A DNA stretch of 64,000 nt, taken from sequence record MN342150; one strand, written 5' to 3'. Made by a program: the position numbers and the translations under genes. This DNA comes from Escherichia phage vB_EcoM_3HA11. Each line of letters starts with the position of its first letter. Position 1 is the stretch's first letter. Positions 10,182-55,917 of the stretch are shown here, in pieces. The notes beneath the pieces were generated by a model. The model had not been told where the DNA came from, made no database searches, and worked only from the letters and a program-made list of their open reading frames with translations.

Positions 10182-12464
10182 ATGATTAACATCATTAAAC
10201 GGGACGGATCTTCTGTCCCCTTTGACATTGAAAAACTCCACACTGTTCTTGAACGTGCCTGTGAAGGATTAGAAGGAGTTTCGGTGTCTGAGGTGGAAGC
10301 AGCATCGAAGATTCAGTTCACAGACAATATGAAAACCGAACGCATTCAGGATATTATCATCCAAGCGGCGGCTACATTGATTTCTGTAGAAAAACCCAAC
10401 TACCAATATGTTGCTGCCCGTCTGAAATCGTATGACCTGCGAAAAGTCGTCTATGGGCGATACAAGCCACCTCACTTGCTTGATATATTCGCTAAAAACA
10501 TCAAGCAGGGCGTTTATGATCGTGAATTCCTCGAACTCTATACGAAAGAAGAATTTGAAGAACTGAACACGGTCATCAATCACAAACGCGACAAGAATTT
10601 TACTTGGGCGGCTATGGGCCAGCTCACGCAAAAATATCTTTTGCGCGATCGCTCAGCAGACAGCAAAGTGTATTACGAAACGCCTCAAGTCATGTATATG
10701 GCGATAGCGATGGCTCTGTTCTCTGCATGGGATAAAGAAACCCGCCTGACGATGGTGAAGAAATTTTATGAATACGCCAGTACAGGTAAATTCAGTCTTC
10801 CAACACCCATCATGTCCGGCGTTCGTACCCCAACCCGCCAATTCAGTTCTTGTGTTCTTATCAAAACCGGTGACACTTTGGACTCAATCAATGCTACAGC
10901 CAAAAGTATTGTTGATTATGTATCCAAACGCGCTGGGATCGGATTTGATGTCGGAGCAATTCGCGGCATCGGTAGCCCTATCCGAAAAGGCGAAATGGTG
11001 CACACAGGCCTGGTTCCTTTCATCAAATATCTGACTGGGGCATTAAAGTCTTGCTCTCAAGGCGGTATTCGTGGCGGATCAGCAACTTGCTATATCCCTA
11101 TCTGGCATTATCAATTTGATGATGTTGTGGTCCTGAAGAATAACCGTGGTCTTGAAGAGAACCGTGAACGCCGTATCGACTATGGTATTCAGATCAACCG
11201 CGTCATGTTCGAACGTCTGGTGAACAAACAACCCCTGTATTTGTTCGATCCGAAAGACAACCGCGATATGTACGAAGCGTTTTTCGCAGATGTCGATAAG
11301 TTCCGTACCCTGTACGACAACATGGTCAAAGCTGCTGATGCTGGTTTGGTTCGTGCCAAGAAGATGAATGCGGAAGAAGTATTCCAGATGTTGTTGGATC
11401 AGCGTTCAGATACAGGCCGCATCTACATCGCGTTTGTCGACCACATGAACCAGTACAGTCCATTCAATCTAGACACAATCTATAGTTCTAATCTGTGTCT
11501 GGAGATTGCGCTTCCTACTCGTGAATTCCAACAGTACGACGATGAAGAAGGTCGGATCGCTCTGTGTACTTTGGCCTCTTTTAACCTGACGGCGTTTGAA
11601 GACCCGACAGAAATGGAAGACGTTGCATATGTCTTGGTTTCGGCTTTGGATATGCTGCTGGAATACCAAGATTATCCAGCACGTCAAGCCCGTCTGGCTG
11701 TGGAAGAATATCGTCCTCTGGGTATCGGTGTCGTCAACGTTGCACATTTCTTCGCCAAGAACTTCACGGGGTATGGATCTCCTGTTGGGTTAGAACTCCT
11801 GGACAAGTGGATGGCGCACCTGCATTTCTATCTGGTAAAGGCTTCGAATCGTCTGGCCATGAAGTTTGGGGCATGTAAGAAGGAAACCATTCATCGTTCT
11901 GGTAAGATAACAGCCGACCTTCAACCGTTGCCGCTGGATATCCTCCCCAATGGTAAAAAGCCGGAAGGTATGGCATACGGCCTTGACTGGGACGGTTTGA
12001 AAGACTCTCTGCGTTGCCATGGTATCCGCAATGCTACTCTCTTGGCGATAGCACCAACTGAAAGCTCCTCTCAGGTGCTGAACGCCACGAATGGTATAGA
12101 GCCACCCAAAGGCCTCATCAGTATCAAAGGCAGCAAGGATGGCGTTTACAAGCAGATCGTTCCGGACGTTGAAACCCTTGGTCCTCTATATGACCTGAAA
12201 TGGAATCTGTCTTGTATCGACTATTTGAAAACAGCGGCGGTCGCCCAGCGTTGGGTAGACCAATCCATCAGCGTTAATACACATTATGATCCAGAGAAAT
12301 TCCCAGACGGGAAGATCCCGCGCTCTCTCATGATGCAGGATATTCTGTCTTTCTACATGTGGGGTGGTAAAACTCTGTATTACAACACCAACAAAGACTC
12401 TAAGGAAGATGAAGAGTTGAAACAAATTGAAGATCCGAATCACTGTGACACCTGTGTTGTCTGA
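10182..12464 (+). CDS. nrdA: ribonucleotide reductase class I large subunit
   Basis: 760 aa; N-terminal ATP-cone-like region, conserved RNR core blocks, C-terminal Cys pair (HCDTCVV). Confidence 0.9.
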   Translation: MINIIKRDGSSVPFDIEKLHTVLERACEGLEGVSVSEVEAASKIQFTDNMKTERIQDIIIQAAATLISVEKPNYQYVAARLKSYDLRKVVYGRYKPPHLLDIFAKNIKQGVYDREFLELYTKEEFEELNTVINHKRDKNFTWAAMGQLTQKYLLRDRSADSKVYYETPQVMYMAIAMALFSAWDKETRLTMVKKFYEYASTGKFSLPTPIMSGVRTPTRQFSSCVLIKTGDTLDSINATAKSIVDYVSKRAGIGFDVGAIRGIGSPIRKGEMVHTGLVPFIKYLTGALKSCSQGGIRGGSATCYIPIWHYQFDDVVVLKNNRGLEENRERRIDYGIQINRVMFERLVNKQPLYLFDPKDNRDMYEAFFADVDKFRTLYDNMVKAADAGLVRAKKMNAEEVFQMLLDQRSDTGRIYIAFVDHMNQYSPFNLDTIYSSNLCLEIALPTREFQQYDDEEGRIALCTLASFNLTAFEDPTEMEDVAYVLVSALDMLLEYQDYPARQARLAVEEYRPLGIGVVNVAHFFAKNFTGYGSPVGLELLDKWMAHLHFYLVKASNRLAMKFGACKKETIHRSGKITADLQPLPLDILPNGKKPEGMAYGLDWDGLKDSLRCHGIRNATLLAIAPTESSSQVLNATNGIEPPKGLISIKGSKDGVYKQIVPDVETLGPLYDLKWNLSCIDYLKTAAVAQRWVDQSISVNTHYDPEKFPDGKIPRSLMMQDILSFYMWGGKTLYYNTNKDSKEDEELKQIEDPNHCDTCVV

Positions 12465-12489
12465 TTAGGTCTATACCACACAATCGTTT

Positions 12490-12525
12490 AATATCAGGGG
12501 TGATTCGTCACCCCTTATTCATCAG
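12490..12525 (+). other. stem-loop between nrdA and nrdB (GGGGTGA-TTCG-TCACCCC)
   Basis: Perfect inverted repeat in the 70-nt nrdA-nrdB spacer; possible attenuator or processing site. Confidence 0.35.
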
Positions 12526-12534
12526 GAAAGAAAC

Positions 12535-13638
12535 ATGAACGAACAAAAGCAATTCTCAGTATTCGATCCATCTTCAAATAATACAGGACTGCCATTCTTT
12601 GGCGACCCTGTAAGTATCCAGCGTTATGACAAAGTGGCTTGGCCTTTTGTTCAAAAATGGTATGAAAAAGGCCTCAGCCAATTCTGGCGTCCGGAAGAAG
12701 TGGATGTCACCAAAGACAAAGCGGACTTTGCCACGCTCTCCGCAGCAGAACAACACATCTACTTCAGCAACCTGAAACGCCAAACCATGCTGGACTCTAT
12801 TCAGGGCGCTGCTCCGTTCGAAGCGTTTGGCCCGTGGGCATCAACACCAGAAGCGCAATTTGCTATTCTGGAATGGACGCGCCAAGAAGCCATCCACTCA
12901 CTATCTTACACGCATATCCTTCGTAACACAGTGAATGATCCTGGTATCGTTTTTGACCATGTTCTGGACGTTCAGGAGATCGTAGATTGCGCCGGACAGA
13001 TCAGCGTATACTACGACGACATGGTGCGTTACAGCGGGATGCGTATGGCTGGACGCGCGTTCACCCGTGAAGACATCATGAACGCCAAGCGTGCATTCTG
13101 GCGTGCTCTGTTTGCTGCCAACTCCCTCGAAGGCGTCCGTTTCTATGTTTCATTTGCGTGTTCTTGGGCATTCATGCAATTCCTCAACAAAATGGAAGGC
13201 AATGCCAAGATTATTCGCCAGATCGCTCGTGACGAGCAAGATCACCTCATTCTGACACAGACTTTCCTGAATCGTCTTCCGTTGTTAGACCCTGATTTTG
13301 GTATCATCCGTGAAGAACTGCGTGGCGAAATGACCCAGATGTATGTGGATGTGGTCAACCAAGAGAAAGAGTGGGCGAACTATCTGTTCAAAGACGGATC
13401 CATGCTGGGTCTGAACGCAAATATCTTACACCAAATGGTTGATTGGCTAGCAACACATCGTATGGGCGCGATTGGCCACCCGTACCCTGGGCAAGCCCGT
13501 AAAGACAATCCGGTTCCATGGATAAATGAGTGGCTAGATAATAAAACAATGCAATACGCATTACAGGAAGCGGAAGCCCCTGATTATCTGACTGGTGTCC
13601 TTACTGGATCAGTCTCCGACGGTCTGAAATTTGTTTAA
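12535..13638 (+). CDS. nrdB: ribonucleotide reductase class I small subunit
   Basis: 367 aa; di-iron/tyrosyl-radical family pattern, adjacent to nrdA. Confidence 0.88.
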   Translation: MNEQKQFSVFDPSSNNTGLPFFGDPVSIQRYDKVAWPFVQKWYEKGLSQFWRPEEVDVTKDKADFATLSAAEQHIYFSNLKRQTMLDSIQGAAPFEAFGPWASTPEAQFAILEWTRQEAIHSLSYTHILRNTVNDPGIVFDHVLDVQEIVDCAGQISVYYDDMVRYSGMRMAGRAFTREDIMNAKRAFWRALFAANSLEGVRFYVSFACSWAFMQFLNKMEGNAKIIRQIARDEQDHLILTQTFLNRLPLLDPDFGIIREELRGEMTQMYVDVVNQEKEWANYLFKDGSMLGLNANILHQMVDWLATHRMGAIGHPYPGQARKDNPVPWINEWLDNKTMQYALQEAEAPDYLTGVLTGSVSDGLKFV

Positions 13639-13647
13639 AGGTGAGAA

Positions 13648-13872
13648 ATGATTACGATCTATTCCAAACAAGGTTGTGCGCAGTGTTTACAAGCCGAAAA
13701 CATCTGCCGCATTCGCGGTATTGAACACCAAATTCTGAAGCTAGACAAAGACTACAAGCTGGAAGAATTACAGAAAATCACTGGTAAGCAACGCATGTCT
13801 ATGCCCGTGATTGTTCTGGCTGACCAAACCGTGACCGACGTTACTGGACTCGCCGCAAGTTTGAAACGCTGA
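13648..13872 (+). CDS. nrdC: glutaredoxin/thioredoxin-like redox protein (NrdC/NrdH-like)
   Basis: 74 aa with CAQC active-site motif immediately downstream of nrdB. Confidence 0.7.
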   Translation: MITIYSKQGCAQCLQAENICRIRGIEHQILKLDKDYKLEELQKITGKQRMSMPVIVLADQTVTDVTGLAASLKR

Positions 13873-15015: not shown

Positions 15016-15429
15016 TCAATTTGTCCGTTTCAACCATATCGTGTCTGTTATCGGCTCTGGGTTGTTGACCACATAGAACGTGATGGTTACGCCCAGAGAA
15101 TGATAATCGTCAGACAATGACACATCAACTGATTGTATCTCCGCTCTCGGTTCAAATAAAGCAATCGCGTCTTCAACTTTGTTTTTAACATCAACCTGAA
15201 TTGTGGGATTCGTATTTTCCCCCAGCATGGTATACAGCCCAGCCCCGATACTTGGGTATGTCGGCCAATCCCCAACTGTTGTCATCACGATATTTCGTAC
15301 GGATTGCAACACGGCATAGACACCTGTTTTCTTTGTGACATCTTTGGTGACCGGATGCATGCCAAACTTCAGGTCAATGTCCTTGTACTCTTTCATGTTA
15401 ATCCCCTTTGGATATTGCCTCTCCGGCAC
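15016..15429 (-). CDS. 25: baseplate wedge protein (gp25/GPW family)
   Basis: 137 aa, pattern typical of gp25-like lysozyme-fold baseplate proteins; directly downstream of the gp5-like gene. Confidence 0.6.
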   Translation of the reverse strand: MPERQYPKGINMKEYKDIDLKFGMHPVTKDVTKKTGVYAVLQSVRNIVMTTVGDWPTYPSIGAGLYTMLGENTNPTIQVDVKNKVEDAIALFEPRAEIQSVDVSLSDDYHSLGVTITFYVVNNPEPITDTIWLKRTN

Positions 15430-26185: not shown

Positions 26186-26257
26186 TTTAACTCAGAAGCA
26201 TTCAATAGATGAAGGGGTTGCTATAATAGCAGCTCCTTTTGTTTATTGGAGCATGTC

Positions 26258-26920
26258 ATGTCTTATTCGCTCAAAGGGCTGTTGAAGCGCCCTGTGCATT
26301 TGTTTGTCAAACCACCTGCTGTAGAAGGGGAATATTCGGCACGAGGAGAGTTGTATTACATTAAAGGCTCCAATGGTAGTGGTAAGTCTACTGTGCCCTC
26401 TTATTTGGCGGAGAATGATCCTCAGGCGTATGTCGTAACCCATAACAGTAAGATCATGCTCACGGTTTGTCCATCTTACAATATTGTCTGTGTCGGTAAA
26501 TATGACAAGTCTAAGTCCAAAGGGGTTGATTCTCTGAAGGATACTGAGCAGATGTTGTTCGCGTTGTCTATTTCTGACCAACCAGAATACCTGAAATATG
26601 ATGTGATTTTCGAAGGCATCATTCCGTCTACATTATTGAGTTCTTGGATCCCCCGCCTGACACGCCCACCACGTGAATTGGTCGTCCTCTTTATGGATAC
26701 CCCTCTTGAAACCTGTATTGCCCGTGTTAAATCGCGTAACGGTGGCGCAGACTTCAATGAAAGTCTGGTGGTCGAGAAGTGGGAGCGCGTTCACAACCAT
26801 CGGGGGCGGCATAAAGAGTTGTTCCCTACCGTGTGTGCGGGTATGATGAAGTCTCACGGTCTAACTGTAGACCAAGCTGTAATGGCGTTCCTCCTCCGTG
26901 ACTTTGGGAGCATTGACTAA
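26258..26920 (+). CDS. P-loop kinase (candidate nucleotide or DNA-base kinase)
   Basis: Walker A GSNGSGKST; first gene of a translationally coupled operon; its stop overlaps the start of the hydroxymethylase gene. Confidence 0.55.
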   Translation: MSYSLKGLLKRPVHLFVKPPAVEGEYSARGELYYIKGSNGSGKSTVPSYLAENDPQAYVVTHNSKIMLTVCPSYNIVCVGKYDKSKSKGVDSLKDTEQMLFALSISDQPEYLKYDVIFEGIIPSTLLSSWIPRLTRPPRELVVLFMDTPLETCIARVKSRNGGADFNESLVVEKWERVHNHRGRHKELFPTVCAGMMKSHGLTVDQAVMAFLLRDFGSID

Positions 26921-27966
26921 TGGAAATTAAAGCTATCAATAACAACGACATGCTGAAACAGGCTGTCTTGGCTATCCGTGAATACGGGATTGAATCTGAT
27001 CCTGGCAACGCGGAGATCAACACTGACGGCACCCGCTTTCTTGATGGTGTGACTATCACCGTCAGTGATATCCGTGACCGCTGGTTATCCGTTGAAGGTC
27101 GCAACTCATCGGCCATCGCAGCTATCGGTGAGACTTTCTGGGTGCTGGCTGGGCGCAATGACCTGAAGTTCCTGTCACGTGTCCTGCCCCGCGCTGCCAA
27201 CTTCTCCGACGATGGCCTAACATGGCGAGCCGCTTATGGGCCGCGCCTGTACGCCCATGGTCAGTTACAGAGCGTCATCAACCGTCTCCGCAAAAACATC
27301 AACACCCGTCAGGCGTATCTCACCATCTATGATCCGTCTCTGGACTCTGATGTTGGTCTGGCCAAGCACAACGGCTCAAACGAAGCGAAGACCAAAGACA
27401 TGGTGTGTAACCTGGCTCTGTTATTTGCTGTCGTTGAAGGTCGTCTGAACCTGACGGTCATCAACCGCTCACAAGATGTCCTGTGGGGTATGAGTTCAAT
27501 CAACTTCATTGAGTTCTCTATCCTTCAGGAAGTGATCGCGCAGGTGCTGGATGTAGACGTCGGCCAGTACAAGCTGTTCTCTAACAATCTTCATTACTAC
27601 AACAATGAAGTCAGCCAGAAGCAGCTGGGTAAGATCACGAAGGACACCAAAGTAGAAGCTGGGTTCATCAACTCCATGATTCACTTCACGAACGTGACCA
27701 ACCAGAACCATATCCGCAATCTGTTCACTGGTGTGCTTCATCACTGTGATATCGGTAGCCCGTGGGAAACTGTGGTCGCCCACCTGAAGGAGTACGATGC
27801 TGATCGCGGCCTGATCGTACAGATGGCATACTGCCTGTACTGCAAGCTGAACGACAAGCTCATCAACATGAACCTGATTCAGGATCATGGCCTGAACATT
27901 GCACTCACTCACTCTCCGGTTGACCGCAAGATCGTTGATCCAAAGTTCCTGGAAGGTGCGTTATGA
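26920..27966 (+). CDS. thymidylate synthase-family pyrimidine hydroxymethylase (gp42-like; base specificity uncertain)
   Basis: Blocks GETFWVLAGRND, DMVCNLA (catalytic Cys without the P-C-H of true TS, as in T4 dCMP hydroxymethylase DFMCTNT), NRSQDVLWG and GQYKLFSNNLHYY; 348 aa. Confidence 0.65.
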   Translation: MEIKAINNNDMLKQAVLAIREYGIESDPGNAEINTDGTRFLDGVTITVSDIRDRWLSVEGRNSSAIAAIGETFWVLAGRNDLKFLSRVLPRAANFSDDGLTWRAAYGPRLYAHGQLQSVINRLRKNINTRQAYLTIYDPSLDSDVGLAKHNGSNEAKTKDMVCNLALLFAVVEGRLNLTVINRSQDVLWGMSSINFIEFSILQEVIAQVLDVDVGQYKLFSNNLHYYNNEVSQKQLGKITKDTKVEAGFINSMIHFTNVTNQNHIRNLFTGVLHHCDIGSPWETVVAHLKEYDADRGLIVQMAYCLYCKLNDKLINMNLIQDHGLNIALTHSPVDRKIVDPKFLEGAL

Positions 27967-28532
27967 TGTATCCAAACCTTGAATTCTTTACGGGGCGTAA
28001 GCGCTCCGGCAAGGACTTCTGTTTGGAGTCCCTGATCAGCTACCACCATCTACAGGGAGACAAGGACATTCAACGCCTGTCTTTCTCGGATGAGCTGCGC
28101 CGTGTTGCCAACTACATCTACCCGTGGCTGCCTGAGGAGGTGGAGGATGCTGTGAAGGACGTTTCATTCATACACCCCGATAACCCCAAGGGCTTAACTC
28201 CACGGCAGATCTGGCTTCATCTCGGCAGCGATACGGGCTTGCGTTACGTACAGCCTGATCTGTTCCTGGCGTTCTTCAAGCGCTTCCAGCTTCCTCTGGT
28301 AGAGCAGAACCCTCACGTCCATTATATCGTGAGCGACCTGCGCACCCCCCAGGAATATGAATGGGCGCTGAGTACGAAATGTCCTATCACCCGCATTTCA
28401 AAGGCCGACCGCGCTGGTATCATAGAGGACGATATAGAGGCTTTCATTGATAAGATGGAAGTTGATTATGAATTTGTCAATCCGTTTGAAGGTTGGCAAC
28501 CGTTCGTCAAATTTTATAGGGATCGGAAATGA
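27963..28532 (+). CDS. 1: deoxynucleoside monophosphate kinase (T4 gp1-like)
   Basis: P-loop GRKRSGKDF matches the T4 gp1 GVKRSGKDT pattern; ATGA overlap with the upstream gene. Confidence 0.65.
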   Translation: MMYPNLEFFTGRKRSGKDFCLESLISYHHLQGDKDIQRLSFSDELRRVANYIYPWLPEEVEDAVKDVSFIHPDNPKGLTPRQIWLHLGSDTGLRYVQPDLFLAFFKRFQLPLVEQNPHVHYIVSDLRTPQEYEWALSTKCPITRISKADRAGIIEDDIEAFIDKMEVDYEFVNPFEGWQPFVKFYRDRK

Positions 28533-29077
28533 TCACAACAGAGCATATTAAAAGTCTGCTCGAACTTCAAAAGGCCACCAACGTGGCCTATTTTGGGGAA
28601 GAGTGGAAGAATGTATGGAGTCAGAACGCGATCATCAACTCCATCTATCGCGAGTGGGCGGAGTTCCTTGACGAAACCACCCGCGACTGGAAGGTCTATG
28701 GTAACGACATCGGGTTTCACCATGCGAACGCAGTCTATGAACTGGTGGACGTGGTTCACTTCATGCTGTGTTTCATCCTCGTCGATCGCACCAAAGGAGA
28801 GATTGAAGAAGAAATGGAGAATCTTGGCCGACGGCTCGTCCCAGGGACGAGTTCAGTAGGGCATCGCAATGTTACGTATCGCCTTGGGCAGTTCATGAAC
28901 GATCCTTGCGTCGAGACTCTCATGGTCTTCCTATCGACTGTGTGTTCTTACATGGAGATCGACATTGAGACCTACATGCTGGCACACAAGCGCAAAAACG
29001 ATCGCAATCGGCTGCGTGCTGCTGGCGGCGCGAATTACGATAAGTCCGCAGAAACCCCTCTGACCCTGGAGTTCTAA
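28529..29077 (+). CDS. 56: dCTPase/dUTPase-type all-alpha NTP pyrophosphatase (T4 gp56-like)
   Basis: ELVDVVHFMLCFIL block matches T4 gp56 ELVDIFHFVLNMFV; 182 aa. Confidence 0.65.
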   Translation: MITTEHIKSLLELQKATNVAYFGEEWKNVWSQNAIINSIYREWAEFLDETTRDWKVYGNDIGFHHANAVYELVDVVHFMLCFILVDRTKGEIEEEMENLGRRLVPGTSSVGHRNVTYRLGQFMNDPCVETLMVFLSTVCSYMEIDIETYMLAHKRKNDRNRLRAAGGANYDKSAETPLTLEF

Positions 29078-29607
29078 TGTTTACAGTTGTCGTATCATAT
29101 TATGCGGAACATGCCCCGCAAATGGCAGAGAACTTTGCTGAGTTTATTAAACCTGGCAGACATGTCGTTATCGCGACCAAATTCAACAAAGAACCAGATG
29201 GTGCGGCTACTGTAACGCAACATATTACAACTCCAGAGCCGGAAACCCTTTTCAAACGTATTGAAGATTTTGCTTTTGGCGGGGAAGAAATTCCAGAGTC
29301 ATTACAGCATATCTATTTTGAAGATGCGATATATTATGTTCATGCTATTCCAAAGGATGTTACAACTGAACAAATGATGTATATCCTGAATATCGCATTG
29401 AATGTTTCTTGTGTCAACAGGGCACAGCACAATCGTCTGCGTAATATGTATTTAACAGAACGCGGGGGTTCCGAAATTAACGATGAAAAACTCCCGTCAA
29501 TAATGGCGATTCACGAAGCAATCAATATATTGTCCAAGAAAGTCTTGGGCACCGATTTATTAATTACGATCAACAAGCAAGAGGAAACGAAATGGCCGAT
29601 TCATTGA
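29077..29607 (+). CDS. hypothetical protein (176 aa) within the nucleotide-modification operon
   Basis: ORF coupled to dCTPase (TAATG overlap) and overlapping the uvsX start. Confidence 0.45.
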   Translation: MFTVVVSYYAEHAPQMAENFAEFIKPGRHVVIATKFNKEPDGAATVTQHITTPEPETLFKRIEDFAFGGEEIPESLQHIYFEDAIYYVHAIPKDVTTEQMMYILNIALNVSCVNRAQHNRLRNMYLTERGGSEINDEKLPSIMAIHEAINILSKKVLGTDLLITINKQEETKWPIH

Positions 29608-30677
29608 TGGCTCGCATGCTCAAGACAGCAAAGAAACTGGACCCGAATGCCGAAGTGCTGTCAAAGACCGATGCGCTGAAGCCTGACATTATTTGCAGTA
29701 CGGGTATTCCTATTCTGAATTTGGCCTGGTCCGGTCGTATTGATGGTGGTCTGATATCAGGCATCAAACAGTTGGTGGGGGATTCTCGTACATTCAAAAC
29801 CATGTTTGGGCTGGTAGATGTTAAGGCTTACATGGATAAGTTTCCTGATGCAATTTGTATCTTCGCGGATTCCGAAGGCGGTGCGAATGAAAACTACTGG
29901 ACATCTATGGGTATTGACATGGACCGTGTCTTGTATCTGCCGATTGAAAACGTTGAAAAGACGAAGATCAAGCTGACACAGCTTCTGAATGATGCTCAGA
30001 AAGGTGACAAGATCATCGTATTCATCGACTCAATCAGCCAGTTGCCGTCTACCAAAGAAGTTGATGATGCTATCGCGGGCAAAGACACACAAGATATGAC
30101 TCGCGCTCGCGCTCTCAATAGTTTTTGGCGTGTTATCACTCCGTTGGTCACTGAAAAGAAATTCGTTTTGGTATGGATCAACTCGTACTATGATGAAATC
30201 GGGAACCAATACGCCGAGCCGAACATCAAAGGCGGTAAACAGGGGTTCCTGTCTTCTAACCAATTGTGGTTCATCACGCGTTCTCAAGTAAAAGAAGACA
30301 AAGACCTTTTGGGATGGCAGTTTACAGTCAACATCATGAAAGGTCGCTTTGTCCGTGAAAAATCCAAGTTCCCTGTCACTGTGTTGTATGAAGGCGGTAT
30401 TGACCGTTGGTCCGGTATGTTAGAAATTGCGCGCATGCTGGGGTATGTGGATTTGGTGAGTGGTTCTTGGTATCAACGTACTGCCAAAGGCGGGTTTGAT
30501 CCAGAAAAAGAAAAGAAATATCGTAAGGCAGAGCTGGGGGATGACTTCTGGTATCCGTTGCTGGAAAACCCAGACTTTGTTGACGATGTGAACAACATGT
30601 TCGGTATCTCTCAGAGTTCGGTTATGCCTGCAGATATGCTGGAGCGCCTCGATAATGTCATCAAAACAACCGAGTAA
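29592..30677 (+). CDS. uvsX: recombinase UvsX (RecA family)
   Basis: PDAICIFADSE, IVFIDSISQL, DMTRARALNSFWRVITP and REKSKF blocks match T4 UvsX. Confidence 0.9.
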   Translation: MADSLMARMLKTAKKLDPNAEVLSKTDALKPDIICSTGIPILNLAWSGRIDGGLISGIKQLVGDSRTFKTMFGLVDVKAYMDKFPDAICIFADSEGGANENYWTSMGIDMDRVLYLPIENVEKTKIKLTQLLNDAQKGDKIIVFIDSISQLPSTKEVDDAIAGKDTQDMTRARALNSFWRVITPLVTEKKFVLVWINSYYDEIGNQYAEPNIKGGKQGFLSSNQLWFITRSQVKEDKDLLGWQFTVNIMKGRFVREKSKFPVTVLYEGGIDRWSGMLEIARMLGYVDLVSGSWYQRTAKGGFDPEKEKKYRKAELGDDFWYPLLENPDFVDDVNNMFGISQSSVMPADMLERLDNVIKTTE

Positions 30678-30984
30678 TATTGCAGGGGGAGGAGACTCCC
30701 CCGTTAATTACAAAATCATCGACCCTGGTTCTGATCAGTTAGCTATTATCGAAATAACGGAAGGCAAGTTCCGCGGTGTTCAATTTCGTATAGGAAAAGT
30801 GGGTGTCCATGTAGACAATGGAGAACCTCGGTTATCCTTTACGACGGATATATTGAAGAAACCATGGCGTTTGTTATTTGTTAATTTGAAAGAAAATGAC
30901 TTGTTCACTGTGGTGTCTGGGGATATCTTAGTTGATCTGATACAGCAAAATGCTCAGGATTACAACAAAATTTTGGTGGGGTAG
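30655..30984 (+). CDS. hypothetical protein (109 aa; occupies the position of T4 gene 40)
   Basis: ORF between uvsX and gene 41. Confidence 0.4.
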   Translation: MSSKQPSNIAGGGDSPVNYKIIDPGSDQLAIIEITEGKFRGVQFRIGKVGVHVDNGEPRLSFTTDILKKPWRLLFVNLKENDLFTVVSGDILVDLIQQNAQDYNKILVG

Positions 30985-30990
30985 TTGCCA

Positions 30991-32415
30991 ATGTTACTCG
31001 AATCTGTCGTGCTTTCCCAATTAATCTACAATGAAGAATATCAAAGAAAGATCCAGCCGTATTTGAAAGCCGATTATTTCGATAACGAAGGCGAGAAGAT
31101 TATATTTGGTCTTATAGACCATTACACTTGCGAATATAATGCTCGTCCTTCGGTTGAAGCGCTGTCTATTATGCTGGAAAAGACTTCGCTCAATGAACAC
31201 GTATTTGATCAGGCCATTTCTGCTCTTGAAAATATTAATGACAATACTTTTCATCAGGACTGGTTAGTAAAAGAAACAGAAAGTTGGGCGCGTCAGAAAG
31301 CTGTTCATAACGCAATTAGACAAGCCGTTAACATATACGGCGATGAGAAACGCAAAGATGAGATGAACAACATCCCTACTTTGCTGCAAGAAGCCCTGGC
31401 GATTCAGTTTGATTCATATCTCGGTCACATCTATTGGGAAATGGCTGAGCAACAATACGACCACATGAACTCTAATGAAGCGAAGATCCCTTTCGCCGTA
31501 GAGATATTCAACAAAGCAACTCGTGGTGGTGTTGGCAAGAAGACATTGAACATCGTTACAGGCGCAATCAACGCAGGTAAGACAACAACTCTGATTGATT
31601 TGGCTGCTGGTTATGCCGAGCAGGGGTTGAATGTGTTCGTATTCACCCTCGAAGTGGCCGAGAACGTCTGGCGACACCGCCTTGATGCCCGTATGATGCG
31701 CAGGGACTTCGAGTCCTTAGAGAAGCTCTCACGGCACGAGTATATTGCCACCATACAAAAACTGAGAACCCGTCAAGACGGTTCCATGAAGGGTGATATT
31801 GTTATCAAGGAATATCCTTCGGGCGCGGGGCATACAGGTTTGTATCGTCGTGATATTCTTGATTATGCGACTGTAACAGGAATTACACCCGATGTCATCA
31901 TTATTGACTACTTGGGGGAATCTGCGTCTTCTCGCCTTCCCGCTCACTTGATGCAAAACACCAACGTGTATTATACATCCGTGGCGCGAGAATTCCGTGC
32001 TCTTGGGTTTGAGTTTGATTGCCCTGTTTGGACAGGTATGCAGTTTAACCGTGAAACGCAATCAGCAACTGATGGTAATATCAGTGACTTGGCAGACGCT
32101 ATCGGTATCCCGAAGGTCGCTGACTTTATCATGGCGTTTTATGCCCCAGACGAACTGGCGGCTGTTAAGAAAGCCAGAGCATCAATCTTGAAAAATCGTT
32201 ATGCCAACAAGCAGAAACTCAAATCATTCTTGTTTGGTATGGACCAAGATAAACAGATCTTGTTCGACTTGGACTGGAATGAAGTCAAACGAGACCTGAC
32301 TGATGAAGAAGCCCGTTATGTTGAGAACGTGCATATCAAGCATGACTTGAATAAAACGGGGGACTCAAATGATGTTAAAAAAGCCGAGACCGTCAATAGT
32401 TGGAATTTCGGTTAA
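30991..32415 (+). CDS. 41: replicative DNA helicase (DnaB family, T4 gp41-like)
   Basis: Walker A GAINAGKTT, DnaB-like C-terminal RecA fold; ATG at 30991 (track ORF begins at TTG 30985). Confidence 0.88.
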   Translation: MLLESVVLSQLIYNEEYQRKIQPYLKADYFDNEGEKIIFGLIDHYTCEYNARPSVEALSIMLEKTSLNEHVFDQAISALENINDNTFHQDWLVKETESWARQKAVHNAIRQAVNIYGDEKRKDEMNNIPTLLQEALAIQFDSYLGHIYWEMAEQQYDHMNSNEAKIPFAVEIFNKATRGGVGKKTLNIVTGAINAGKTTTLIDLAAGYAEQGLNVFVFTLEVAENVWRHRLDARMMRRDFESLEKLSRHEYIATIQKLRTRQDGSMKGDIVIKEYPSGAGHTGLYRRDILDYATVTGITPDVIIIDYLGESASSRLPAHLMQNTNVYYTSVAREFRALGFEFDCPVWTGMQFNRETQSATDGNISDLADAIGIPKVADFIMAFYAPDELAAVKKARASILKNRYANKQKLKSFLFGMDQDKQILFDLDWNEVKRDLTDEEARYVENVHIKHDLNKTGDSNDVKKAETVNSWNFG

Positions 32416-45314: not shown

Positions 45315-45836
45315 TTAATTCCTTACTTTGTCAGGATTAGATAATATTTGTTCGTATCCGACTTCTCCTTGATAGTCGAAAACATGCTGAAGAATCGCCA
45401 TATCGTCTACCATCCGATAAACTTCAATTCCAGCGTTCATCAATTTTTTGATTCCATCCATAATACGATATGGCTCACGATAATATACTTTATCGATTTT
45501 ACCGCTATCTATTATCTTTTGAGTGCAATTAGGGCAAGGACTATGTGTCACAAACATAACCAACCCTGTGAAATCATCTGCATTTTCGGGGATACGCATT
45601 AGAGCATTTTCCTCCGCATGAACAACACACGGGTTTGTAACAATTTGCCCGTGTTGCTCCATCTCACAAACATTCGGCATGCCAGGAGGCGTTCCGTTCC
45701 ATCCGATAGCCACAGGCTGATCAGTTTCAGGGTTTACGATAACACAACCGACTTGCAGACGCCGAGCATAACTGGTTACACCATATGCTGCAGCTGATCG
45801 CATATGAGCAAACATCATACGTGGTTTGATAGCCAT
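45315..45836 (-). CDS. cd: dCMP deaminase
   Basis: Zinc-binding motifs VHAEENA and SPCPNC. Confidence 0.8.
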   Translation of the reverse strand: MAIKPRMMFAHMRSAAAYGVTSYARRLQVGCVIVNPETDQPVAIGWNGTPPGMPNVCEMEQHGQIVTNPCVVHAEENALMRIPENADDFTGLVMFVTHSPCPNCTQKIIDSGKIDKVYYREPYRIMDGIKKLMNAGIEVYRMVDDMAILQHVFDYQGEVGYEQILSNPDKVRN

Positions 45837-47795: not shown

Positions 47796-48458
47796 CTATG
47801 ATAACTCATGGCGGTGTCGAACACACGCAGGGCAATTACAATTCTTTTTCAAAATTGGCATTTCACACCATGTCATTAAGTCATGTATTGGGGACATGTG
47901 ATGATAGAACCAAGATTTCTTGAGACTAATCAATGGATATAAAATTTCAATAGGTCTTTCCCCGTCTCTGGTCATCATGTTGTACCCTTCAATGACTTTA
48001 TTAAAAGCGGGTATCCAGTGTATTGCGTCATCGCCGTTAACATATGCCAATATATACGTGGACGGCAAGCCCCTGCCTTTAAATTGCGTGTTTAATAACC
48101 ATATCGGGGCTTGTGCTAAACAAGCGCGAAAACCACCGTCAGGGACGTTGATGCCACTGATAGGTTCTTGATGATGTGTCCAACGATACATAAGAAGTGG
48201 GGCATTTTTATTAATCCAGTTGTGAATTTTATTCCTCGCCCAATTTTCGCGTTTAGATTTGCATTTATTATTTTCGAGGTGGCAATACACAGTATGAACT
48301 GAATATCCTTTCGATAACAACCAAATCAACATGTATGTGCTATCCACCCCACCAGACCAGAACAACGTCACTTCTTGATTATTCTCCGGCAATGGAGCAT
48401 CCCCTTGAAGAACACGGTATACAAAATCACAATCAGATATTGAGACAACAATTTCCAT
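47796..48458 (-). CDS. queC: QueC-like PP-loop ATPase (7-cyano-7-deazaguanine synthase family, putative)
   Basis: PP-loop SGGVDST near the N-terminus and a C-terminal Cys cluster C-x8-C-N-C-P-A-C as in QueC zinc sites; 220 aa. Confidence 0.55.
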   Translation of the reverse strand: MEIVVSISDCDFVYRVLQGDAPLPENNQEVTLFWSGGVDSTYMLIWLLSKGYSVHTVYCHLENNKCKSKRENWARNKIHNWINKNAPLLMYRWTHHQEPISGINVPDGGFRACLAQAPIWLLNTQFKGRGLPSTYILAYVNGDDAIHWIPAFNKVIEGYNMMTRDGERPIEILYPLISLKKSWFYHHMSPIHDLMTWCEMPILKKNCNCPACVRHRHELS

Positions 48459-55338: not shown

Positions 55339-55917
55339 TTATAGACCAAATTTACCGCGCCATTTCTGTACTTTGTGTTCAATGGCATGCTCAACTTTGA
55401 CTATGGTGCTTTTTAGATTATGGTTGTGATCACAAGCCAGTTTGGCAGTGTGTCGGATGACACCATTTACCAAATCGGCCAGATTATCATCTGTTCTTTG
55501 TGGTTGGTTGAGTAATCTGGTAATGCGACCTTTGTAGTGGTTGATCATCGCTAGTTGCTCGTCCAAACTATCAACCCCACCACAGAACCAATAATCTTCT
55601 AAGGTGTGTTGTGTGAGGTCACTTGTACAGTTGGCCCGAGACAGAGAGAACACGATCGAATCAAATATCTCGTCTTTGTTCATAGAGCCGTATTGTTGAA
55701 TATGCTGATATTCACAAACATACAACAAGTCCAGTGCTGAAATAATAACGTCTGCCACTTCACCATTCAGAGGTTCTGAAGCAGAAATCTCATATAACAC
55801 GTCAGACAATTCGCAAGTTTCTTCAACAAGTTTACAGAACACAAATACAGATGGGCGATTCGGTTCTTTCTGGCTGAGTTCATAAGATGTTTCTAAGATG
55901 CGACGAATAAATTTCAT
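55339..55917 (-). CDS. MazG-like all-alpha nucleotide pyrophosphohydrolase (putative)
   Basis: Acidic helix motifs LVEETCELSDV ... EVADVIISALDL. Confidence 0.5.
   Translation of the reverse strand: MKFIRRILETSYELSQKEPNRPSVFVFCKLVEETCELSDVLYEISASEPLNGEVADVIISALDLLYVCEYQHIQQYGSMNKDEIFDSIVFSLSRANCTSDLTQHTLEDYWFCGGVDSLDEQLAMINHYKGRITRLLNQPQRTDDNLADLVNGVIRHTAKLACDHNHNLKSTIVKVEHAIEHKVQKWRGKFGL

Follow-up and report, generated by a model that had tools for sequence, protein, structure and literature searches.

The window, by which we mean the whole stretch of 64,000 nucleotides that was analysed, carries five tightly packed genes that are preceded by a hairpin and run straight into the genes for UvsX and a gp41-like helicase; a dCMP deaminase gene that bears on their interpretation lies further along, on the opposite strand. 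The features are as follows:

26198–26252, plus strand: conserved stable hairpin, between an upstream 319-aa ORF and the kinase gene
26258–26920, plus strand: predicted 5-hmdU DNA kinase gene, 220 aa from its ATG (ORF start 26246/26258)
26920–27966, plus strand: thymidylate-synthase (TS)-family gene, 348 aa
27963–28532, plus strand: dNMP kinase gene, 189 aa
28529–29077, plus strand: predicted NTP pyrophosphohydrolase gene (dUTPase_2 type), 182 aa
29077–29607, plus strand: gene for an ACT-like protein, 176 aa
29592–30677, plus strand: UvsX gene (PF00154 and PF21134; 36% identity to T4 UvsX)
30655–30984: 109-aa ORF following the UvsX gene
30985–32415: gp41-like helicase gene
45315–45836, minus strand: dCMP deaminase gene (100% identity to ViI Vi01_030 by tblastn)

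Following the operon from its kinase end, the junctions read TAATG (1 nt), ATGA (4 nt), ATGA (4 nt) and TAATG (1 nt), with a final 16-nt overlap between the end of the ACT-like gene and the start of uvsX. Each start has a GGAG-like Shine-Dalgarno sequence placed within the 3' end of the previous gene; an arrangement consistent with translational coupling. Tight start/stop overlaps are frequent in phage operons and, taken alone, unremarkable. The five genes and their 1/4/4/1/16-nt overlaps are as the first-pass annotation of this DNA had described them, the ORF list and the junction letters both agreeing, and its statement that the operon leads directly into uvsX and gene 41 is borne out by the ORFs at 29592–30677 and 30985–32415. 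UvsX itself is a downstream neighbour, outside the modification chemistry.

The source of the window is a Kuttervirus, i.e. a ViI-like phage of the Ackermannviridae. Collinearity between the window and ViI (NC_015296) extends over 15122–63807, and the five operon genes match ViI Vi01_061c to 057c in order, followed in both phages by uvsX and gp41, with gp32 and a gp2-like gene also common to the flanks. Identity to the ViI proteins is 91% for the kinase, 75% for the TS-like protein, 94% for the dNMP kinase, 63% for the NTP pyrophosphatase and 93% for the ACT-like protein. Comparison of related loci reveals allelic mosaicism within the operon; in and beside it, the genes for the TS-like protein, the NTP pyrophosphatase (whose central segment, ~28770–28967, is a divergent allele) and UvsX represent a second allele type, common to other genera of the Ackermannviridae. 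Gene order is nonetheless identical in 19/19 related loci (on contigs of 152–161 kb), and the operon is present in 272 phage records.

Family assignments of the operon products

The product of the first gene matches PF18748 (HMUDK_HMUD1) over profile positions 1–195 of 196, with 370.9 bits against a cut-off of 27 (E = 1.6e-111), and contains a Walker A motif (G37-SNGSGKST-45). It is 91% identical, over 220/220 residues, to gp67 of ViI (YP_004327432), which likewise lies upstream of a TS homolog. Judged by its sequence, the 26258 product is a 5-hydroxymethyl-dU DNA kinase (5-HMUDK) and the ortholog of ViI gp67; the latter phosphorylates, in vitro, the 5-hydroxymethyl group of hmdU within DNA, giving 5-PmdU (PMC8989533). 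Other kinases are far more distant: weak matches to thymidylate and guanylate kinases were seen, and a comparison with PDB sequences returned no match below E = 0.2. The proposal of the first-pass annotation that this extra P-loop kinase could perform a downstream modification step is backed by both the PF18748 match and the orthology with gp67, which make the step a post-replicative one.

The TS-like protein scores 56.3 bits against PF00303 (cut-off 24.3, E = 3.4e-15) and belongs to phrog_3676 (6e-183); T4 gp42 sits in a separate group, phrog_160. Its residues Cys163, Arg183, Ser184, Asp186, His225 and Tyr227 align with C146, R166, S167, D169, H207 and Y209 of E. coli TS (the E. coli sequence used agrees with the PDB alignment ranges). 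At the position of greatest interest, Asn195 aligns with Asn177 of E. coli TS and with Asp179 of T4 gp42, and a TS of solved structure likewise has Asn there; an Asn where the T4 dCMP hydroxymethylase has Asp indicates an enzyme of the uracil type. We reject a bona fide ThyA, as all seven NCBIfam TS (ThyA) equivalog models fall far under their cut-offs (23–52 bits versus 108–427). In addition, the protein has a C-terminal extension of ~110 aa, absent from both ThyA and T4 gp42, and its closest solved structures are hydroxymethylases (MilA, 2e-15), ahead of TS (4e-8). The TS homolog of CBA120/ViI groups with dUMP hydroxymethylases in a published phylogeny, and CBA120 does not incorporate 3H-thymidine (PMC3184105). 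Taken together, the sequence comparisons point to a dUMP hydroxymethylase that would convert dUMP and methylene-THF to 5-hmdUMP, methylase chemistry being not fully separable from this by sequence. Of the earlier description as a hydroxymethylase-type member of the TS family, the hydroxymethylase part probably stands; the cytosine specificity suggested by a dCTPase beside it falls to Asn195, which is not Asp.

Similarity between the dNMP kinase and T4 gp1 is remote: the 27963 protein matches phrog_139 at 9e-48 and gp1 matches the same group at 2e-65, with the direct similarity of the two weak and at the level of the P-loop only; a phmmer search of the PDB matched no solved structure. We take the protein to be a remote member of the gp1 family and, by analogy with the pathway of the hmU phages, a likely converter of 5-hmdUMP to 5-hmdUDP.

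For the 28529 protein, PF08761 (dUTPase_2) gives 34.8 bits (cut-off 22.9, E = 2.5e-8), the match covering residues 7–165 and profile positions 2–159 of 162, and the top PDB match is the Campylobacter dUTPase 1w2y (1.6e-3); against the NCBIfam dUTPase equivalog the protein scores 30 bits, below the cut-off of 300. The protein also falls in phrog_173 (1e-40), a PHROG that contains T4 gp56, with the pairwise match to gp56 confined to an 11-residue motif (E = 0.008). It had been called a gp56-like dCTPase; the remote family relationship with gp56 holds, and the protein scores as a dUTPase_2. It is an all-alpha NTP pyrophosphohydrolase of the dimeric dUTPase_2 type, and we predict that it acts as a dUTPase/dTTPase and so rids the pool of rival pyrimidine triphosphates; a dUTPase/dTTPase role was proposed by Kutter et al. 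2011 (PMC3184105). The profile matches uphold the remaining family calls of the first-pass annotation (P-loop kinase, TS family, gp1-like dNMP kinase, gp56 family).

Although encoded at a distance, the dCMP deaminase appears to be a member of the same pre-replicative pathway, supplying dUMP to the hydroxymethylase; its part in the pathway of hmU phages has been described (PMC8989533).

Probable thymidine hypermodification and its relation to other phage systems

With a probability that we put at about 0.9, the region belongs to the pathway by which Ackermannviridae phages hypermodify thymidine in the ViI manner, and encodes its nucleotide-pool module and the first of its post-replicative enzymes. 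By homology, the dCMP deaminase and the NTP pyrophosphatase would supply dUMP and remove competing dUTP and dTTP, the TS homolog would convert dUMP to 5-hmdUMP and the gp1-family dNMP kinase would take this on to 5-hmdUDP; an NDP kinase of the host would then prepare 5-hmdU for incorporation into DNA by the phage polymerase. The 26258 kinase would transfer one ATP phosphate onto the 5-hydroxymethyl of hmdU in the DNA polymer to give 5-PmdU, as seen for its 91%-identical ViI ortholog. Two further steps, both seen in ViI and both encoded outside the window, would follow: aGPT-Pplase2 (gp247) would exchange the phosphate for the side-chain oxygen of free L-serine, and a PLP decarboxylase (gp226) would trim the adduct to 5-(2-aminoethoxy)methyl-dU (5-NeOmdU). 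The gp247 serine:DNA transferase and the gp226 decarboxylase of ViI have been described (PMC8989533). The first-pass annotation had suggested that a further transferase should be sought; in relatives of this phage one is present, namely gp247.

Within the 64-kb window we find no orthologs of ViI gp226, gp243 (a second kinase), gp247, gp160 or the second MazG. This is expected from the synteny with ViI, where gp226, gp243 and gp247 are located at 140–152 kb, beyond the syntenic span. Genes resembling gp247 at ≥60% identity occur in 282 records, with host-genus counts near-identical to those of the 272 operon records, and by analogy with these relatives the genome of this phage probably carries the downstream genes too.

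The principal alternative keeps the same front end and leads, via the divergent TS-like and NTP pyrophosphatase alleles or via different downstream genes, to another end product (bare hmdU, O-seryl-T or some other adduct) or to another level of modification. Room for this is left by the location of the downstream genes outside the window, by the allelic mosaicism of the operon and by the variable level within the family (~40% in ViI, 16% in phiHS2). Against it, gp247-like genes accompany the operon in some 280 records; four different ViI-like phages, and phiHS2 too, have yielded one and the same nucleoside of 301 Da, 5-NeOmdU; and a review describes the modification genes as all conserved family-wide; we consider this outcome distinctly unlikely.

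The first-pass annotation, with its dCTPase, had pointed to a cytosine pathway: dC would be kept out of the DNA by a dCMP hydroxymethylase together with a dCTPase, and a novel hypermodification derived from hmC would be built by the kinase and the 176-aa protein. This accords with the placement of the NTP pyrophosphatase in the PHROG of gp56, with CMP hydroxymethylases being, among solved structures, the nearest to the TS homolog, and with the position of the operon beside uvsX and 41, the site of gene 42 and b-gt in T4. We reject it on two grounds: the specificity residue Asn195, at the position of the Asp of cytosine-specific enzymes, and the match of the kinase to the 5-hmdU DNA kinase family, where it is 91% identical to a characterised enzyme. 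Relatives, moreover, have modified T and normal dC in their DNA, and the phage-encoded dCMP deaminase feeds dUMP; a modified cytosine is very improbable, and the modified base is almost certainly thymine/uracil. The broader proposal, of a base modification built on a hydroxymethyl-pyrimidine and different from glucosyl-hmC, fits both the PF18748 kinase and the ViI orthology, and its corollary that glucosyltransferases are missing agrees with a tblastn search of the 64-kb window with T4 beta-gt, which found no homolog (best E 2.9).

Equally hard to sustain is ordinary nucleotide salvage or synthesis (a true TS, two kinases, one for nucleosides or thymidylate and one for dNMPs, and a dUTPase of the housekeeping kind, the DNA staying unmodified), for although many database records label the genes ‘thymidylate synthase’ and ‘dUTPase’ and the kinase has its weak thymidylate/guanylate kinase matches, the low ThyA scores, the full-length 371-bit PF18748 match and the experimental literature on close relatives all contradict it.

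ViI-type thymidine hypermodification, our preferred reading, is not new: the operon is real, and the pathway is already described for ViI-like Salmonella phages, its chemistry and enzymology having been published in 2011–2021. The 5-NeOmdU pathway of ViI/CBA120 is the subject of Kutter (2011), Iyer (2013) and Lee (2018, 2021). 5-NeOmdU takes the place of ~40% of T in ViI, CBA120, CBA6 and 1.255.O. Relative to the pathway of ViI and the E. coli phage CBA120, the window shows the same genus, gene order and orthologous proteins, with allelic differences only, the downstream genes falling outside its 64 kb.

More distant systems share parts of this scheme. Delftia phage PhiW-14 (alpha-putrescinylthymine) and Bacillus phage SP10 (alpha-glutamylthymine) also use a dUMP hydroxymethylase, hmdU incorporation, and a 5-HMUDK and aGPT-Pplase acting on the DNA polymer, with T replaced in part; they differ in their nucleophile (putrescine or glutamate, not serine), in doing without PLP decarboxylation, and in an unrelated genome backbone with the genes arranged otherwise. 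The Bacillus hmU phages SPO1, SP8 and phi-e have the dCMP deaminase, dUMP hydroxymethylase, dNMP kinase and dTTPase/dUTPase, but end at 5-hmdU with full replacement of T, and lack a 5-HMUDK or later decoration. T4 follows the same logic, with genes beside uvsX and 41: its hydroxymethylase is of the TS family, its dNMP kinase of the gp1 family and its NTP pyrophosphatase of the gp56 family, and decoration comes after replication; its modified base, however, is cytosine (Asp179, here Asn195), its decoration is by UDP-glucose glucosyltransferases (a-gt, b-gt) rather than by phosphorylation and amino-acid transfer, and its base replacement is complete, whereas that of the ViI type is partial. Genes 42, 1 and 56 are dispersed in T4 and their counterparts here form one coupled operon; the T4 order, 41-40-uvsX-segA-b-gt-42 with 56 and 1 elsewhere, bears out the comparison drawn by the first-pass annotation.

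The pathway matters on several counts. 5-NeOmdU blocks many restriction enzymes, the resulting resistance of phage DNA being established for ViI, CBA120 and relatives; the pathway is a source of enzymes that attach amino acids to DNA; and it bears on sequencing and phage-therapy work with Ackermannviridae. The window adds one more member of the family and confirms the conserved layout of the coupled operon.

The ACT-like protein and the upstream hairpin

The 176-aa protein matches PF24021 (ACT_phage) and consists of an N-terminal beta-alpha-beta-beta-alpha-beta domain followed by two long helices and ending in an invariant tail, EE[VT]KWP[IV]H. It is restricted to the Ackermannviridae, lacks an enzyme signature, and its gene is always coupled translationally between those for the NTP pyrophosphatase and UvsX. 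A remote-homolog search of 1.8 billion representatives yielded 18 small stand-alone proteins and zero informative fusions. The protein had been put forward as a possible modification enzyme; this finds no support in its ACT/ferredoxin-like, non-catalytic fold or in the in vitro reconstitution of the final ViI base, for which five other proteins sufficed. Most likely the protein assists or regulates the pathway as a partner that is not catalytic, and carries out no chemical step.

The hairpin ahead of the kinase gene folds, as RNA, with -28.2 kcal/mol (z = -5.7) and has a terminator-like form, an inner stem (26211–26239) being followed by a T-run. Its apex bears TGCTATAAT, which occurs once in the window, not above chance, and so gives no ground for positing a promoter class. 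The 3' arm covers the Shine-Dalgarno sequence GGAG of the kinase (26248–26251), such that the hairpin, terminator-like in form, may also mask this site.

A more speculative, and in our estimation unlikely, extension makes the ACT-like protein a ligand-sensing ‘tuner’ of the pathway (the ligand perhaps serine, folate or a nucleotide), its invariant tail being of a docking type, or a participant in a reversion of part of the incorporated 5-hmdU to thymidine that sets the 16–40% level, with the masking of the kinase ribosome-binding site by the hairpin as an added control of timing. The hairpin itself is kept in ViI and in phage ‘barely’, with one G·U to G–C change.

Operon layout and relationship to phage ViI

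The five genes of the operon all lie on the same strand and lead into the gene for UvsX, a short conserved ORF and then a gp41-type helicase:

Operon genes and downstream neighbours, from the ORF list
26258-26920, + strand, kinase (5-HMUDK, 5-hmdU DNA kinase)
26920-27966, + strand, thymidylate synthase (TS) homolog
27963-28532, + strand, dNMP kinase
28529-29077, + strand, NTP pyrophosphatase
29077-29607, + strand, ACT-like protein, 176 aa
29592-30677, + strand, UvsX
30655-30984, + strand, 109-aa ORF, phrog_3998, conserved
30985-32415, + strand, gp41-type helicase

Successive junctions read TAATG, ATGA, ATGA and TAATG, followed by a 16-nt overlap, with a GGAG-like motif ahead of every start, inside the preceding gene; both the gene set and the start/stop overlaps are exactly as the first-pass annotation had them. 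Translational coupling of this kind is frequent in phage operons and unremarkable on its own. The 109-aa ORF shares its first 23 nt with the end of uvsX and, flanked by uvsX and gene 41, takes the place that gene 40 has in T4; the gp41-like gene after it appears to start with TTG.

A megablast search with the operon region matches 272 phage records, nearly all of them Ackermannviridae, with Salmonella, Klebsiella, Escherichia, Dickeya or Shigella as hosts. The window and Salmonella phage ViI (NC_015296) are collinear between window positions 15122 and 63807, with the ViI record running in the opposite direction; in ViI the five genes have as counterparts Vi01_061c (orf00067), 060c (thyA), 059c (dnk), 058c (dUTPase) and 057c, followed by uvsX, 055c and gp41. 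The closest overall relatives are about 97% identical, and the phage is therefore a Kuttervirus distinct from every record in the collection.

The probable modified base and the proposed route

The first gene encodes a full-length member of PF18748, the ‘5-hmdU DNA kinase’ family (Pfam, E=1.6e-111), with 91% identity to ViI gp67 (YP_004327432). The TS homolog matches PF00303 in Pfam and falls well below every NCBIfam ThyA equivalog cut-off; among solved structures it sits nearest to hydroxymethylases, with MilA at 2e-15 and the best TS at 4e-8. When its specificity residues are aligned with those of the ViI enzyme, T4 gp42 and E. coli ThyA, we see that the catalytic Cys163 is retained along with the set Arg183/Ser184/Asp186/His225/Tyr227, and that Asn195 occupies the position of E. 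coli TS Asn177, which is Asp179 in the cytosine-specific T4 enzyme—judged from the alignment, the pattern of the uracil type. The next two proteins share families with T4 gp1 (dNMP kinase; phrog_139) and T4 gp56 (NTP pyrophosphatase; phrog_173), direct similarity being weak in both cases; the pyrophosphatase scores as Pfam dUTPase_2, its top solved match a dimeric dUTPase.

For Ackermannviridae the genes, the chemistry and the enzymes of this system have all been described already. CBA120, a ViI-like phage, fails to incorporate 3H-thymidine; its ‘thymidylate synthase’ groups with the dUMP hydroxymethylases of hmU phages and is adjoined by a dNMP kinase gene, and its dUTPase was proposed, by analogy with T4 gp56, to be probably also a dTTPase (Kutter et al. 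2011, PMC3184105). In ViI, CBA120, CBA6 and 1.255.O about 40% of T is replaced by 5-(2-aminoethoxy)methyl-2'-deoxyuridine (5-NeOmdU); 5-HMUDK co-associates with a dUMP hydroxymethyltransferase, and lysates expressing gp67, gp160, gp226, gp243 and gp247 yield 5-NeOmdU when supplied with hmdU DNA (Lee et al. 2018, PMC5889632). Both gp67 and gp243 move one phosphate onto the hydroxymethyl of hmdU in DNA, after which gp247 joins free L-serine via its side-chain oxygen; the resulting adduct is then decarboxylated by gp226, a PLP enzyme (Lee et al. 2021, PMC8989533). According to a 2024 review the whole family has kept the modification genes, and a 2026 preprint again reports 5-NeOmdU, at about 16% of T, from another family member.

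By homology, the route at this locus would begin with dUMP supplied by a dCMP deaminase (45315-45836, - strand; 100% identical to that of ViI), which the 26920 enzyme would convert to 5-hmdUMP and the 27963 kinase to the diphosphate, whilst the 28529 pyrophosphatase would clear dUTP and probably dTTP. Polymerase would then place hmdU in DNA, where the 26258 kinase is expected to activate it as 5-PmdU, as shown for its ortholog gp67. Genes for a class Ia ribonucleotide reductase (nrdA, nrdB) and glutaredoxin are found at 10182-13872 (+ strand; 99-100% identity to ViI), and together with the deaminase form the upstream nucleotide supply of the pathway.

Later steps would fall to genes beyond the window: as predicted from synteny with ViI, the 64 kb contain no orthologs of gp226, gp243, gp247 or gp160. 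The operon occurs in 272 records and gp247-like genes in 282 (at least 60% identity), with almost identical genus counts, and from this co-occurrence in relatives we infer the downstream genes in this phage also.

The first-pass annotation is partly supported. Its logic was good: a hydroxymethylpyrimidine-derived, non-glucosyl hypermodification matches the published 5-NeOmdU pathway of ViI and its relatives, and the extra kinase, envisaged as a downstream step, belongs to the PF18748 family whose member gp67 phosphorylates hmdU in DNA. The search it suggested for aminoacyl-transferases was apt in that gp247 attaches serine in ViI, but finds no gp247 ortholog in the window. The base, taken to be cytosine, is instead thymine/uracil, as indicated by Asn195 and the kinase family.

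The ACT-like protein

The 29077 product belongs to Pfam PF24021 (‘Phage ACT-like domain’), a very small family (8 clusters in a 5.8-billion set; 18 representatives among 1.8 billion) whose members all stand alone at about 170-190 aa. Its gene lies between those for the NTP pyrophosphatase and UvsX in 19 of 19 IMG/VR loci, all on contigs of 152-161 kb. The family alignment reveals conserved Cys112 and Arg115 and an almost invariant C-terminal tail (residues 169-176; EE[VT]KWP[IV]H-COOH). The tail is disordered in the AF2 prediction and resembles a peptide that docks onto another protein. There is no sign of catalysis, and the protein is absent from the five sufficient for reconstitution in vitro (PMC5889632); its casting as a modification step is unsupported, and a part in DNA modification is possible but likewise unsupported. 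An accessory or regulatory role beside the other proteins seems the best reading.

Upstream hairpin, annotation and allelic mosaicism

Within the 72-nt gap 5' of the kinase gene lies a very stable hairpin (26198-26252, + strand; -28.2 kcal/mol, z = -5.7) with a terminator-like T-run after its inner stem and an apex, TGCTATAAT, that resembles an extended -10 element. In the predicted fold its 3' arm sequesters the Shine-Dalgarno GGAG of the kinase. The hairpin is also conserved in phage ‘barely’ and in ViI, where a single pair differs (G.U to G-C); it may serve to end transcription, to control translation, or to do both.

The 5-HMUDK gene is commonly misannotated, as ‘terminase small subunit’ (RefSeq phage records, PHROG 800) or ‘baseplate hub’ (Det7 gene 107). 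The error has been propagated between records; the true small terminase of ViI is Vi01_162c, its kinase gene Vi01_061c.

Two further genes of the window match ViI; near the first there are no obvious 7-deazaguanine partner genes:

47796-48458, - strand, QueC-like gene (92% identity to Vi01_023)
55339-55917, - strand, MazG-like pyrophosphatase (100% to Vi01_011)

Comparison of loci L007-L025 with the window (26920-27966, 28529-29077 and 29592-30677) shows the TS-like, NTP pyrophosphatase and UvsX genes as discrete allele types, shuffled independently of genus-level markers: identity to the window is about 74% or 90-98% for the TS-like protein, 58-64%, 77-87% or 100% for the pyrophosphatase, and 70-72%, 77-78% or 98-100% for UvsX, with flanking genes at 97-99% within the genus. 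Loci of other genera (ACT-like protein only 55% identical) have TS-like proteins with 91-95% identity to that of the window, ViI’s own being 74-75%. These sequence comparisons suggest that the three genes are exchanged across genera.
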